Origin: Lingula anatina
Lineage: Eukaryota > Animalia > Brachiopoda
DNA length: 64,000 nt
Assembly: GCA_051362555.1 (NCBI GenBank)
Contig: CM120643.1
Coordinates: 13,366,644-13,430,643 of the forward strand
Direction of reading: 5' to 3'
This document shows positions 21,132 through 56,500 of this stretch, one piece after another (the stretch's first letter is position 1; each line of letters begins with the position of its first letter). The translations under genes were made by a program, and so were the position numbers. Under the pieces are notes generated by a model that had not been told where the DNA came from, searched no databases, and saw only the letters and a program-made list of their open reading frames with translations.

Positions 21132-24100
21132 TCATTCTTGCTGAAAAACTATCTGATTTCCCTCAGACTGTGGCACTAGTATTGTCCTGGTTACTCCCTC
21201 CGAGGACGGCACAAAAATTGTCTTGGTGTGTTCTCCACCATGTGTCTCAGTTGTACTCTGTAACAAGGCCTGGTACAAATCTGCCGCCTCATACGTTATC
21301 GCCGCACCCTGAGAGTCAGACCCAACATAGGTGATAGGGGCACCCTGGGAGTCAGCAGTGACCACAAACTGTTGAGTTTGCAGTGGTAAATGATCTCCAT
21401 CGGTGTTGATGATGAGATTCATGGGTTGAGATGAGGTGACCTCTTCCTGGGTGTCGATGACTTCTGTCACCGCCATGATGTCCTGACTTCTCTGGTGCTG
21501 TTTCTGCGAGTCGTGGTTTACGCCGTGCATGCGGCTTTCGTGACGCTGGAGGTGGTGTTTATGGCGGAAGACATAGCCACAAAAACGGCAGCGGAATTTG
21601 CCGTCGCTTGTGTGGGCACGGATGTGCGCTTTGCACATCACATCCGTGTTGAATCTCCAAGTGCATCCTGGGAATGTACATGCAAACGGTCGGTTTAGAT
21701 CGTGCACCCTCTTGTGTTTAGCCAATGTTGGTTTGTCCGTGTAAGCATACCCACATATATCACACAGCACACTGCCTTGACTGTGGAACTGTCTGTGGGC
21801 ATGGATTGCTGCATTCACTTTGGACGTAAAATCACACTGATTGCACTTGAATATTCTCTCCCTGTGGACACGTTTATGTGTATTGAGATAAGTGAGAGTA
21901 GTGAACCCCTTGCCACACTGATCACAGACAAAGGAGCGCTCAGTTCTATGAGTCTTCAAGTGATTCCTGAGATACCGCAAGCGCCCAAACACTTTCTCGC
22001 ACTGATCGCAAGGAAAGATACCCGGTAAGTCCTGCTTCTCTATGTTTCTATTTCGTCTCTTTGATTTCACTGTTTTGGTAAGAGAGTCGTAACTCTCATT
22101 AAACACTCTAAGACTGATAATCTTTTCCCTGTCTGTTCCGTCTAGAATGTCTCTGTCCACTTTCTGGTTGATCTCTAATGCCTCTCTGTGGTTGCCCATA
22201 AAATGCTTCACTAATGCACTCTTTGACACAGTTTTATACTGGCAGTGAAGACACTTCAGGAACATCTTAGAATATTCGTCAGTATATCCTTTCAATTTCT
22301 GATAAGACAGAATAAAGTTGAAGTCACAATCAGTATCAGTGTCCATATCCATATTGTCCTGATTTTCCACCTGGGAATCTTCTGCTGGTGCAGAATCATG
22401 TTCTGTTTCACAGGAATCTTGGACAACTATTTGAACATGTATTGTCTTGGAATTTTCCTCTCCCTCCTGCCCTCGTTCTGTGAGAATCTTGTCCTGGTCC
22501 GTGCTGCCACCTATGTTAGTGTTGTCTTGTACTGCACTGCCACCTGTTTCTGTGTTATCACTGTCTGTATTTGGAACCATATCAAATTCATGTCCAGCTG
22601 GTTTGAGTTCTGTCCTGTTGTTACCTTCATTCCTACAATGTCCAAAAATACTTTCAAAAGATAAAGATGACCCTGGTCTAATATTCACAAAAACATTAGA
22701 TAATGCAAACAAAATAAACACTACACATGTTGATGGGTGCCTAATAGTAATTGCTGCCTTATCCTGAACTGAGAATTTTCTCATTTAAATGGTTTATATT
22801 TTTAAAAAACCTCCATAATTCACAAGCTATAAATTGATAGCAAAAGCCCATATGCACCTTGGGTAAATATTACATTAAGGGCCAGCAGTAATTCAAACAC
22901 TATTATGCCACAAGTAAACTCCACTCACCTGGTGACCTCTTTGTTAACAGCCTTCTTGGTTCCCTCCCCTCTGTGGTAGAACCTGCTGATCTTGTGCTGT
23001 TTCTTGTAATGCTGAACCAGTGTGAAATGGCGTGTGAACTTCTGTGTACACAGTTCACAATGGTAACGGCTGCTAGAAGATAGATCTGGAAAAACAAAAC
23101 AAAAAAGTTTAAATGACCTTAAAGAGAATTTGTAAGATTTTTAAGATTTGTAAGGATTTGTAGATTTTGAAAGATTAGCATTTTTGACTGAAAATCATTA
23201 CGGTATATGATTATTTTTAATAATATGCTATATCCTAAACTTCATTATTACTAATATATATAAACCTGAGATCACACTTAGCCAGTTTAAAGGAAATATT
23301 AAAATGAGGCTTACATAAGGGGGCCGTAAGAGAAGTTGTCAATTTTTTTACAGTTTTAAGAACATGTAGATTTAAGTTTAATTATACCATGGAGGTACAT
23401 CTCTTGACTATGCACACTACACTTTGATAAATATGGATTACTAGTAACTGGGTGAATACATAAAAGGGAAAAAATGTCTTACTTGTACACAGTAAATATA
23501 ATGCATTTATGTAGATGTAAGTTACTCACATTCTTGATACAATTCAAATATATGTATATCTAGTGAAAACCATCAGCTTAAAACTTACAATCCGACTTAT
23601 GTTCCAGGAAAGTCAGGATGTCCCTGAAAACCTTGAGGCACCTGCCACACTTCAGTTCATCAGTGGCCACTGGAAAGTACAAAAAGATTAAAAACTTGAC
23701 ATAAAAGTTAAAATAAGACTTATTCAAACAAAAAAAAAAACATATTGATAAATCACTGTTTGAGCTGCTGTATGTTTTTAAAGAATCTTTTTAATAATAC
23801 TTGAAATGTAATAGCTTGAGAAGAAACTTAAGGCTATATTGTGAATTGAGTCGGAACTCTATAAACACCTGACTAAAAGATACTAGTAGTATCTCTGTTC
23901 TTTTCCATTCCTTCTGACTGCTTATGACTATATTTATCTCAAATTGAGTAACCTTTTGTTCTCTTGGCTGCATTTCATAAATTTTACTTTTTCCGCTAGA
24001 TTTTGTACCCTTGCCAAAACAGACAAATGACATAGCAATTTTAATGAAACTTCGTTTAACCTTTTCCCCTTAACTTCCAGTGCAATACGCAAAAACAATT

Positions 24101-51401: not shown

Positions 51402-53536
51402 TCATGACATTGTCTGATACATTTTTTCAACCCTACATCCACTCATAACAAACCTGAAGCCATCCTGAAAAGAAAAAAAAACAAAACGTGAAATTAATAC
51501 TTGGCAATAAAAACACTGTACGATTCAAAAAGTCTTCCGTATTCAAAATGTGTAGATTTATGGTTGACCCAACTGAACAAATGTAAACCTAAAGCTATGA
51601 AAAATTGCATATAAAATACGTCAAAGGCAGTCTCGTGTTAGCATGTATCAAAAAGGTGATTGTGCATTGATATGCACTTTTCTTTGTTGTTAGTTTTTAA
51701 AATATAATTATACACGTGTTGGGGAGTTACAGTACGCGCAAAATAGAATGAAAGTTATTGCAACGAGTTCAGTCTCGGATTATTTAAAAAACAACTGCAT
51801 TTTATTTGATTTTACCTCCGTAGGTAATGTAACTCCGATGCACATACCACGTTATTTAAATATTGCTACAACGATGGATAATAGCTTTTTGGCAAATTTA
51901 TGGTTATCTTTCAGCTGTTGTGTAATCCAGGATCTCGTTTTAAACATACGTATGCATTACACACATCTATATAGACGCACGTAAACAGAAAACAAGACTT
52001 GTTCAGATGGGCATCATATAGCTTTATACAACGAACATTTGACACCCGATTTCTGCCTTTTCAATTACTAAATATTCATTATTCATTTGTTAATACCGGG
52101 CGTGTATTCAAAGCTTTGTGTTCCGTTCTGTTGTTCATCAACGTAGGTTTAATTATCAGCGGGATATCGAGGCTATTTTCCCATATTTTGGTAAGACGGG
52201 CTTGTGTGCCCAAATGCGTAATTCTGGTTATTTTCACTTGAAATCAACCAATTTGTCACCCTTTGCCCAAAACTCTTTTTTTTACTGCCTTGCATACATT
52301 CTTTTTGGTAATAGATTAATCTTCTCTGTTTCGGTGACTAAATTAATTTTAAAACGTTTACACGTATGTCATCTTACGGTGACGTCACAATTGCGATTTA
52401 GGGGAAAAAACCGAAAAATTGCTTCCTCAAATATCTCTTTTACCTAAACAAACACGATCACTGTTTCAATGCCAATTTAATGACATAATTTAGTACTTCA
52501 AAACACTGCCAGCGATTTTTCTTAAAAGTCTTAGTTCAGATTTTATCGTTGATAAAGCAAAAGAATGCCTTTGTTTAAGGAAAATCAGTAATTAGGGGCT
52601 CATAACTCGATCCATAACCAATACATTTAAAGCAAAATGACGACACGGGATTGTAGCTCATACACTCGTGGCTAACTTTTCCAATTGATAAAATCTTGTT
52701 CAATGAAGAAGTTAAGCCCCGTATCGATTGATATCTCACCTCAAAATATGGGTGTTTAATTGACGATTAAAGCTGTGATTTGCCTATGCTTATACACTGC
52801 AACGAGAAATATTTTATGTTTCACTATTTCGATATTTTATCTTTTCGAGGTTTATTTATTGTATTAAATCAGCAGAAAGATAATTTAATAATTAGATGCA
52901 GGAAACACCTCATTTTCTGTATCTGGATGATAATAAAGGGTTACAATACCGTTAAGACAAGTGTGACTGAAAGAATTATATCAAAAGACAAAAAAATGTA
53001 AAACGTCAACCTGCATGCCATGACAGATTTCCACAGCTCTGCCGTGACCAGGATTCGAACCTGGGTTGTCTCGGCCACAACGAGAAGTACTAACCACTAT
53101 ACGATCACGGCCCGTACTGCAGGTACGATCAATTGACAACACGTGTAAACCTGGCTTTGGCACGTGGTTTCTATTCATTCCTTAAAAAAACGATTTATCA
53201 AAATTATACAGGTATTACGGGCGGGGCACGCACTGTATCCCCTTTTGAACCAGTCTTACTCTTGTGTTTACACCTTGTAAGATAAAAAGCGCCCATATAA
53301 AAAAGAAGCAGCAATAGAAATAAGGTGATGCAGAGGGTGGCCAGATATCCTGTGGGTTAAGTAATTCTTTCTAAACACTAGATACTTTTTTGTTTCTGAT
53401 ATTGCTATCCAGTGGCTAGAAATTGTTGCTCTCCTTAGGATAATTGTTCAGAGGAAAACAATTTTATCCGATGGAAAGTGCAACTGTTATCCATAGGGTA
53501 GCTCTCTCCAGCATTCATAAAACTGGGATAGCGTTT

Positions 53537-53572
<36 letters not shown>

Positions 53573-56500
53573 CTAACTCGGACTCGTGACGAGAGCTGTC
53601 AGGAAAAGTGACCGATTTGTATGTGCTTAAGAACATTGCTAATTTTGTTAGCATTATTTAGAACAATAGCCTTGTAAGTATTTATCGTATAGCCACATTT
53701 CGTTTTTGATATTGTAGTTGCTGTGAAGAAAACTTCTTGTAACGATTACACGGTAGGCCTATCTAAAATCAACAAAAGATCTCCTGCATGCCATGACAGA
53801 ATTCCACAGCCCTGCCGTGACCAGGATTCGACCCTGGGTTGTCTCGGCCACAACGAGAAGTACTAACCACTATACGATCAAGGCCCGTATTACAGGTGAA
53901 AACAAAGTCAACGGCACGTGTAAACGCGACTTTGATTCGTGGTTGTTATAGCTTTTTAAGTACCAGAATTTGGCATAATAATAACACATAAAATTACGGG
54001 CCGCTCACTATACCTGTCCTTTTTTTCACTAGTCTTACTTTTTTTCTCAATTTGTAAAAAAAAATATATATATATATATACGGCGTTTCTGTATTCTTAT
54101 TTGCCGAACTGATAAGAGCTTGCGGGAAAAGTGGCCGATAGGTATAGCTTATGTAAATTTACTGATTCTGTTGGCATGATTTAGATCAATAGATTAATAA
54201 GTATTTATCTTAATGCCACATTTCGTTGTTGATATTGTAATATAGCAGGGGTTTTGAGTACTAAATGGTGTCATTAAATTTGCGATGACACGGTGATCGT
54301 GGGTGCTCAGGTAAAAGAGAAATTTGAGAACACGATTTTTCAGTTTTTATCCCAAAATCGCAATTGTGACGTTACCCTTTAGATGACATGCGTGTAAATG
54401 TTAATTAATTTAGTCATTGGAACACTGAAGATTTATCTATTACCCAAAACAATGTATGTAAGGCAGTAAATAAGGAGTCTTGGGCGGAGGGCAACTATGT
54501 CCTTGATAATAAAAAGACAAAAGAAGTCCTGCATGCCATGACAGAATTCCACAGCTCTGCCGCGACCAGGATTCGAACCTGGGTTGTCTCGGCCACAACG
54601 AGAAGTACTAACCACTATACGATCACGGCCTGTACTGCAGGTAGTGACCACTGCGACAGCACGTGTGAACCCGTCTTTGATGCGTGGTATAGTTATTGAT
54701 TCTTGGCAAAATCGTAGAAGATATATAACAAACGGGACGTGCACTGCGTCCTTTTACTCACCAGTCTTATTATATTATTTACAATGTGTAAAACATATAT
54801 GCGTCTTAATTGAAAAATATTTTAAAAAGTAGCAGTAACAGAAAGAAAAACAGTGTTAACCAATATACGATCACAGCCAGTATTGCAGGTAGACATACGT
54901 GTTAGACAGTATGTGACTCTCGGTTTTTATTGATTCAAAAATATTAAAGATGCATACAAAGTCAATTTTTTGTCACAAAAAACTACCAAAATGCCAGCAT
55001 ATAGTTTCAAGTAGTATAACTAAGAGAATTACCAAAAGGCAATGTTTAATTTTACCCGAAAATGATGTTTGAACAGATTTTTCTGCTAGCATTCTATGCT
55101 GTATGTCAATGGGGAAGAAAAGTAGGTCACGAAAGTAGGTTAAATTTCTGACCAGAAATTTGAAGAAAGGAGCAGTCTAAAGCTCTTTTATGGCTGATCG
55201 AGTGATCTATTCAGTTTATCCCTTGGCATGTCGAATTTATTTGAGTCGTATAAGAAACTAGTAGAAGTGGTTTACATGTGTTACTGGGAATCCACACTCC
55301 ACCGATGCTCGGTTCGTATGTACCTTTAAATTTTGGCAAAAAAATAACATAATAGATTAAGAACGGAACTCGCAGTTCACTTTTCTTACTAGTCTTACTA
55401 CTCTGCTCCCAATCTGTAAAACAAAAGATATAGCTGTCGCACCTGCTCTGCAAGTGTTAACTTTGACAAACGTATCGACTCACCCGTATAGAATATGGAA
55501 CCGATTTCCAGAACTCCACGTTTGGAAGCAATTCTACTCCAGACTTTCCTTTTGCTTTGTAGTTATACGCCACACCGGCTATAAGGTATACAACCACAAG
55601 GACCAAGACTCTGGAGAGTACAAGAAAAATGTGAAATTAGAGTCGGTCTGAGCTCAGACCCCCTAAAGAAGTGGGTCCGAGGGTTGAGGTTCGTATGTGT
55701 GTGAGGGTCAACCAAATAAATAAATAAATAAAATAAATTAAGTGGCGGGAGGGTGAAGCAGAGAGACAGTTTTTTCTTTTCTTTAATCCAGTTACACGGT
55801 TACTAACGGTCAGCCCACGCATATAAGTATAAAAAGAAATAAGATATGTTTCGAAAATATGATGAAATAGAAGATAAAGCACCCCATTTCTTAATAATCA
55901 TGGCCTCTGGAATAAATTATTTTGCATTATTCAACAGACATCATTCTCCGTAATTCTGATCATTACCAGTGCATGGTGTTCACATTTACTTACATGATAA
56001 TAAGAATTGTCCCGCCGCTTAACCCGCCTCCGCCTAGCGGAGCTCCAGAGAAACAAGCATATTTGGACGTCAGCGTCATATACTATAGGAAAAGCGAAAA
56101 GATTAACATAAAAATGACACGTAATTAAAAAAAAAAAAAAACTAGACCAGGATCTTTTAAAAAAATAACCCATTCTATATTTTAGACACACTGGTAGCTT
56201 CTATGAGTTTGATAAATTAGCCTAAAAACCAGGAATTAATTTCCCTGTTCGTCCAACATCAAAGTAGCAAAGTAGTCTGCACTGTTTCCACTACGCAAAA
56301 GATTAGGCTGTCAACAATCAATTTAATGTTGCAATCCACTGTAGTCTCCATAGCGATATACATATGTAGCTAGTCAGCGTGTGTGACGCTCTCGAAGAAA
56401 CACAGTGACGGAAAGAGTGGATCTCTACTCGGCGAAATAGGAACAGCGTCACCATTGAGCCCTACCCTCTACCAGGGTCGCAGATTGAATTTTCTCTAGA

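Follow-up and report, generated by a model that had tools for sequence, protein, structure and literature searches.

The leaders and trailers of precursor tRNAs are regarded as disposable, and tRNA trailers as a rule lack conservation (PMC8457004). Here we describe a structured leader and trailer that one tRNA type, tRNA-His, keeps across distant invertebrates with covariation, starting from three gene copies in a 64,000-nucleotide (nt) stretch of the genome of the brachiopod Lingula anatina (contig CM120643.1, positions 13,366,644 to 13,430,643; hereafter the window). A clamp helix, P1, pairs the leader with the end of the trailer, and three trailer segments between the tRNA and P1 (element 1, a middle segment and element 2) are complementary to strands of the tRNA itself. 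As judged from comparison of homologous sequences, P1 and the three complementary segments are under selection, and only on tRNA-His among the genes seen. We propose that this RNA element may hold the precursor in a strand-swapped fold and so likely gates end processing, an account toward which we lean, if only slightly.

Leader-trailer extension of the acceptor stem has been described in yeast and human pre-tRNAs (Lee 1997 and Gogakos 2017, as cited in PMC8457004). The mascRNA of MALAT1, with a conserved trailer that affects processing, resembles the tRNA-His element in that its leader pairs with its trailer and leaves an unpaired gap at the ribonuclease P (RNase P) site (PMC8457004). Unlike the mascRNA type, the trailer strand of P1 in tRNA-His lies about 25-40 nt past the tRNA, beyond the three strand-copying segments; it follows element 2, about 20-35 nt downstream, and not the discriminator, and it extends a decoy stem rather than the native stem. 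In the pre-tRNA-Ile(UAU)/miR-1983 system, as is predicted here for tRNA-His, precursor ends favor a non-cloverleaf fold, and La shifts the fold balance (Hasler 2016, summarised in PMC8051267). There, however, the alternative hairpin is, in the account of that source, a mis-channelling to be prevented, whereas the alternative pairing of tRNA-His is kept by selection across phyla and has a multi-arm consensus. Pairing of the single-hairpin, rod type exceeded a probability of 0.5 in 17 of 56 precursors, and the consensus was the strand-swapped fold B described below. Synthetic RNase P riboswitches use precursor structure to control RNase P access (PMC8925977, PMC7897497), as the tRNA-His element might. 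Those described in these sources are engineered, confined to the leader and driven by an aptamer, whereas the tRNA-His element would swap the acceptor stem itself, with no known ligand or aptamer. Circularly permuted tRNA intermediates offer a further parallel, since the T arm of fold B, together with the helix of 3' acceptor strand and element 1, would form a top half closed by a loop, and the acceptor loop of the permuted intermediates is thought to be cut by RNase P and RNase Z (PMC3978253). Unlike circularly permuted tRNA genes, the tRNA-His genes are collinear and complete at 72 nt, their 3' half is not upstream, and neither a bulge-helix-bulge junction nor a circular intermediate is implied.

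Because its layout seems to depart in a defining feature from each family compared, we class the element as new, with a putative function. Taken by itself, the clamp helix belongs to a familiar type of feature; the triple mimicry does not. We found no published description of the element in a search that mostly did not cover subscription journals and older tRNA-processing papers, and an earlier mention is possible. Rfam gave no match at gathering score to the leader or trailer, only RF00005 being returned for the window, and for 20 of the 74 homolog loci it gave only tRNA, 5S and U1. No hepatitis delta virus-like or hammerhead core was seen by eye or matched in Rfam. The Helenus/Ajax retrotransposons, as presented in PMC10886601, are unrelated.

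On the minus strand, the three tRNA-His(GTG) genes occupy 53040-53111, 53813-53884 and 54558-54629, spaced by about 750 bases (ARAGORN; Rfam RF00005 at 61.9, 50.5 and 59.8 bits for copies 1, 2 and 3), with a cloverleaf, GTG anticodon, A discriminator and T-run terminator, and their tRNA bodies are 96-99% identical to one another. We number tRNA bases 1-72 in sequence, 72 being the discriminator (standard 73), with leader positions negative and trailer positions positive. A first-pass annotation of the window had described a near-invariant 30-nt trailer within drifted flanks. Indeed, 86 of 90 pairwise positions match at +1..+30, and identity then falls to 0.4-0.8 at +31..+40 and to 0.1-0.4, the background level, beyond +50. 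The first run of four T residues (T4), which the annotation put 5-6 nt past the trailer, starts 6, 5 and 5 nt after +30 in copies 1, 2 and 3, and the acceptor-like trailer motifs and the leader CCTGCA (CCTGTA in copy 2), complementary to trailer TGCAGG, are present as it claimed. Both mimics occurred in the correct order in 43 of 200,000 shuffled trailers and in 29 of 127,940 30-mers of the window, or about 2 per 10,000 in this post hoc test.

In copy 1, element 1 (+3..+9, GCTGTGG; 53031-53037, all on the minus strand) reproduces the 5' acceptor strand and complements the 3' one. The middle segment (+10..+16; 53024-53030) has as its counterpart in most homologs TCTC-TG, complementary to the anticodon-stem strand 40-43; it is weakened in Lingula, to 2/4 pairs in copy 1 and 3/4 in copies 2 and 3. 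Element 2 with a false discriminator (+17..+24, TCATGGC-A; 53016-53023) is complementary to the 5' acceptor strand, and is followed by the trailer strand of P1 (+25..+31; 53009-53015). The leader strand of P1 (-13..-7; 53118-53124) begins at a pyrimidine-purine step, the likely RNA polymerase III (Pol III) start, and the first T4 run, the likely Pol III terminator, is at 53000-53003.

Homologs were collected by two scans. A generic animal tRNA-His pattern, blind to the trailer, had 0 matches in viral contigs and 9 in genome contigs, the latter apparently animal DNA within bacterial assemblies. The element layout is present in one of these nine unselected loci (L008); the element is therefore not universal among tRNA-His genes, the other eight being without it. 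The second scan, of metagenomes, required a tRNA 3' end followed within 1-8 nt by GYYGTG, so that only element 1 was fixed, and yielded 83 stretches in 74 loci. Row counts exclude nine rows without element 1 (the eight from the unselected scan and a degenerate second copy in L076), and exclusion of a further 3 of 75 rows with cut-off trailers left 72; P1 was counted in the 58 rows with a full tRNA, a 14-nt leader and a 40-nt trailer. Thinning by leader-plus-trailer identity left 33 loci at <85% and 18 at <75%. Wider flanks of these 18 groups do not align with one another, and the element is not confined to linked copies but recurs at unlinked loci of other animals. Of the refuting outcomes named by the first-pass annotation, those on trailer conservation, unlinked loci and covariation were checked, and none of them arose. 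Two loci are not tRNA-His genes, yet are counted within the 72 as one 5/6 row: L061:1344-1384 and L068:2995-3035 hold non-tRNA sequence with only the tRNA-His T arm and 3' acceptor strand, then an element-1-like stretch, perhaps a repeat that captured a tRNA 3' end.

P1 is the firm part of the structure, and comparison shows its pairing kept while its sequence changes. It comprises 6-10 base pairs (bp) between leader positions of about -13 to -6 and the final bases of the trailer ahead of the terminator. A leader:trailer helix of at least 6 bp was found in 55 of 58 rows with their own leader and trailer, compared with 984 of 3170 leader-trailer pairs swapped between loci. The covariation that the first-pass annotation had called for is seen in this helix: two-sided changes occur at 7/7 pairs in alignment A2 (33 loci, sequence-only, single register; 68% of cells paired), and the whole-structure covariation score was reached by 0 of 500 shuffles, a control that ignores relatedness. 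Locus L008 keeps the layout in other letters: its leader CCGCAA pairs with TTGTGG, the counterparts of CCTGCA and TGCAGG in Lingula, and its P1 carries three two-sided changes. G-U pairs are common in P1, which argues that the pairing acts in RNA and not in DNA. The outer edge of P1 is at -12/-13 in 25 of 33 loci and a pyrimidine-purine step stands at -14/-13 in 22 of 33, both of which fit initiation by Pol III at 7-20 bp ahead of box A (PMC8925977). Between P1 and the tRNA, 4-6 unpaired leader bases are left at the RNase P site. Around this site, the 33 homologs have U at -2 in 31 (Lingula is among the exceptions) and a purine at both -1 and +1 in all 33, and a U-purine pair beside a purine-A mismatch is possible there.

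Across the aligned homologs, the three trailer segments are shown to stay complementary to the 3' acceptor strand, the 3' strand of the anticodon stem and the 5' acceptor strand, respectively. Element 2 pairs with tRNA bases 1-6 at 6/6 positions in 68 of 72 rows and at 5/6 in the remaining 4; in A2, 195 of 198 such cells are paired, with C/U variation opposite G and A/G variation opposite U. The fifth base of element 2 is G in 33/33, opposite an element 1 U in 32/33. This G fits a strand swap, in which C3 requires G, whereas the element 1 U would pair better with A. The middle segment lies two bases ahead of element 2 and is complementary to bases 40-43 of the anticodon stem in 31/33, 30/32, 31/32 and 27/30 cells, and it reads TCGC in all 8 rows in which the tRNA has a CGCGA anticodon strand.

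The length of the trailer is characteristic, with the first T4 run 33-43 nt past the tRNA in 58/58 element loci; 36 non-His tRNAs located near them on these contigs terminate within 12 nt. A tRNA-derived short interspersed nuclear element, with a degenerate head and a long conserved body, was rejected: here the tRNA bodies are nearly invariant and similarity ends at the T4 run. A covariance model built from 33 loci, with L008, L045 and window copy 3 in its training set, gave 99-147 bits for element loci with most of the tRNA present among the 31 sources searched, and 69-84 bits for 8 element-free tRNA-His genes. Host groups were readable for two loci only, and Pfam on 81 of 109 flanking open reading frames gave one match. 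Locus L045 adjoins a major vault protein gene whose best named match is the copepod Tigriopus (77%; Lingula 66%), and its host is probably a copepod. Locus L044 adjoins a prohibitin exon whose best named matches are two molluscs and a nemertean, at 86-89% over 59 residues, a weak indication. Judging by these flanking genes, the range of the element probably takes in spiralians and one or more arthropod groups. Several homologs sit in mixed arrays (L019:765-883, L063:1554-1672 and L017:962-1125), in which element-bearing tRNA-His accompanies 5S rRNA, tRNA-Cys and tRNA-Arg, or U1 snRNA and tRNA-Lys. Among the element-free genes (L001:85-110 and the trailers of L003 and L007), L001 and L003 have a common leader ending TAGCTC, and L001 and L007 a common trailer block, TGCGTCGAGC. 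Genes of this L001/L003/L007 type, which we take to be vertebrate-like, may have a different conserved flank. Two element-free tRNA-His genes have long trailers, of 35 and 51 nt.

The first-pass annotation had proposed two folds for the precursor. In fold A, the cloverleaf is followed by an acceptor-like trailer hairpin and closed by the leader:trailer helix; in fold B, the 5' acceptor strand pairs with element 2 and the 3' acceptor strand with element 1. Both alternatives are available to the window copies, in which they are 1.1, 3.0 and 1.1 kcal/mol apart (copies 1-3), with B lower. Inside the clamp, the RNAalifold consensus of the 33 non-redundant loci is the swapped, multi-arm fold B. The two-fold scheme is supported with respect to fold B and proved incomplete in that it missed the third complementary segment and the several near-equal forms of the swapped interior. 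Two of its components gained no support, namely the acceptor-like trailer microhelix (mean pair probability 0.05 in 56 precursors) and the release of a structured trailer RNA, the trailer alone having no microhelix fold (z +0.23 and +0.46); the interpretation as a whole is partly supported.

The median predicted probability of native acceptor pairing was 0.01 across the 56 element precursors, rose to 0.37 when trailers were shuffled and stood at 0.87 for the 36 neighbors; in 7 element-free tRNA-His precursors the values were 0.96-0.99. The most constant feature was pairing of the 5' acceptor strand with element 2, at probability >0.5 in 42/56; at the same threshold, the freed 3' acceptor strand went to element 1 in 28/56 and to the anticodon loop in 17/56, and the T arm was kept in 39/56. 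Single-sequence ensembles are flat, and the energy of fold B minus that of the best native fold has a median of -0.9 kcal/mol, with values from -4.6 to +4.1. The newly made precursor is thus predicted to be held in a swapped fold close in energy to the cloverleaf. Pairing of element 1 with the D arm was rejected as a general fold (>0.5 in only 2/56), and a temperature switch gained no support, predicted native pairing staying at 0.00-0.05 from 10 to 55 °C. Anticodon-loop bases 31-37 of tRNA-His are complementary to 65-71 at 7/7 positions, with wobbles, a built-in misfold of animal tRNA-His.

In the mechanism that we propose, closing of P1 would lead element 2 to capture the 5' acceptor strand, and the freed 3' acceptor strand would join either element 1, adjoining the T arm, as in fold B, or the anticodon loop. 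The true +1 site would then lie outside the measuring frame of RNase P, which in eukaryotes measures the acceptor and T stems (PMC8925977). Before cutting, the strands would be exchanged back to the cloverleaf, aided by tertiary folding, La or a helicase, and release of the cut trailer would be made possible by the wobble pairs in both mimics. We infer a gate on end processing because an accessible leader is a requirement of eukaryotic RNase P (PMC8925977) and RNase Z is inhibited when the trailer is paired (cited in PMC8457004). In synthetic switches, eukaryotic RNase P is governed by how accessible the leader is (PMC8925977). As to a reason specific to histidine, addition of G-1 by Thg1 would be the obvious candidate, and yeast Thg1 needs a CCA end for fidelity (PMC6470698). 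An encoded G-1 is retained in C. elegans (PMC4338351); as a general purpose of the element, such retention was rejected, -1 being G in 20/33 and A in 13/33. A bolder version, which we consider possible though doubtful, is a natural histidine-specific pre-tRNA processing switch that predates the spiralian/arthropod split, in which the trailer would take the place of strands of the tRNA, and the T arm and element 1 would form a circularly permuted top half with a loop cuttable by RNase Z or RNase P at a time when the true 5' site is out of reach. A chaperone, stress or metabolite signal would in this way set the output of tRNA-His, or the sequence of end-processing steps on which faithful G-1 addition depends. 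If gating of RNase P or RNase Z is true, the element would bring a natural case of a type of control demonstrated until now with synthetic switches; it would also offer an easily probed substrate of ~125 nt for posttranscriptional regulation of one tRNA type, and a handle on how tRNA-His coordinates end trimming with G-1 addition.

Several observations weigh against a strand-swap gate. One flank-similarity cluster contains 29 of 83 loci, and counts are not independent. Element 1 was fixed by the search, which would miss homologs with a freely covarying trailer hairpin, and the tRNA strands are nearly invariant, so that the swapped helices cannot show two-sided changes. The change to TCGC in the middle segment is possibly one evolutionary event and is not seen in L045, and this segment can instead pair with the discriminator and trailer start (85.9%). 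Folds of the window precursors are no more stable than those of shuffles (z -0.7 to -0.9), and ViennaRNA takes no account of tertiary contacts, Mg2+, modifications or La, each of which favors the cloverleaf. Finally, among RNA reads from 7 of 9 same-species long-RNA runs (6-25% sampling), only one read pair fell on a tRNA copy, the rest being repeat-derived flank reads. This pair, which comes from a poly(A) library, begins at +1 and matches as far as about +11 of the trailer, after which it diverges from the DNA. As a single molecule, it weakly suggests a 5'-cut, 3'-extended RNA, meaning that 5' cleavage can come first, and it speaks weakly against a strict 3'-first order.

A rival account is a static fold, in which the cloverleaf and an acceptor-mimic trailer hairpin are closed by P1 and would tune RNase P or RNase Z, or bind a histidine-specific protein (Thg1, HisRS or BCDIN3D), with no strand exchange, much as leader pairs with trailer in the MALAT1 mascRNA. 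Fold A fits A2 as well as the swap does (93.1% paired, the extended swap having 89.7%), the RNase P site keeps 4-6 unpaired leader bases, the unmodeled tertiary contacts would favor a cloverleaf, and in MALAT1 the conserved pairing of leader and trailer promotes cleavage by RNase P (PMC8457004). The hairpin, however, is rich in wobbles, with U-G in 32/33 at one pair and G-U in 21/33 at the next, its mean predicted probability is the 0.05 given above, and the tracking of the anticodon stem by the middle segment is left unexplained; we regard this explanation as unlikely. Less likely still, in our estimation, is that some precursors would be diverted into fragments: once element 2 holds the 5' strand, the 3' acceptor strand would pair with the anticodon loop, giving a rod or mini-tRNA cut by Dicer or RNase P, for which pre-tRNA-Ile/miR-1983 is a precedent (PMC8051267). 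The 7/7 complementarity of the anticodon loop and its pairing with the 3' strand at >0.5 in 17/56 precursors would permit this, but the rod is a minority prediction, the T arm being kept in 39/56.

We find it just as improbable that the cut-off trailer of 35-43 nt is itself the product, working in trans, either as an antisense RNA against mature tRNA-His or as a decoy for proteins. The fixed trailer length would be accounted for, as would the complementarity of the middle segment and element 2 to tRNA 31-44 at most positions (fold C). Against this, the trailer alone has no stable conserved fold, the complementary blocks are short and rich in wobbles, and P1 makes sense only in cis. Least probable of all is a neutral relic, that is, an old tandem duplication of the tRNA 3' end homogenized by gene conversion in arrays. 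The middle segment and element 2 do resemble tRNA 57-72 as a direct repeat, and truncated copies also keep the trailer; yet the element is kept across 18 groups with <75% flank identity and unalignable wider flanks, and the two-sided changes in P1 largely refute such a relic. Duplication may be the origin of the trailer segments, but it does not explain their maintenance.

The remaining copies in the window differ in their state. The predicted precursor of copy 2 (53774-53897, minus strand, with its leader, the tRNA at 53813-53884, the trailer at 53783-53812 and T4 at 53774-53777) scores 118.5 bits to covariance model R1. This copy has a U4-C acceptor-stem mismatch and a B-box change, with the trailer still kept, and it may be defective, possibly a young pseudogene; truncated homolog copies likewise keep the trailer. 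The predicted precursor of copy 3 spans 54519-54642 on the minus strand, with a leader helix strand at 54636-54641, the tRNA at 54558-54629, the trailer at 54528-54557 and T4 at 54519-54522. A fourth, truncated copy, missed by the first-pass annotation, consists of a leader and tRNA-His 5' end only (54852-54892, minus strand; repeat family D2).

Upstream of the three genes, islands of identity stand between drifting spacers: CACGTG near -35, ACCACG near -60 and TAAGACT near -150 (plus-strand coordinates 53140-53290, 53915-54065, 54660-54800 and 55381-55423, with a fourth copy of the far island at 55381). They are possibly lineage-specific Pol III upstream elements; CACGTG was found as a shared upstream DNA motif in 0 of 60 homolog upstream regions. 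A dispersed repeat flanks and interrupts the array (52278-52509, 52900-52950 and 54245-54486), in inverted orientation at two places, and attracts many divergent RNA reads. Elsewhere in the window, its brachiopod origin is borne out by a zinc-finger frame of 550 residues at 21135-22784, which shares 98% identity with a protein of Lingula anatina.

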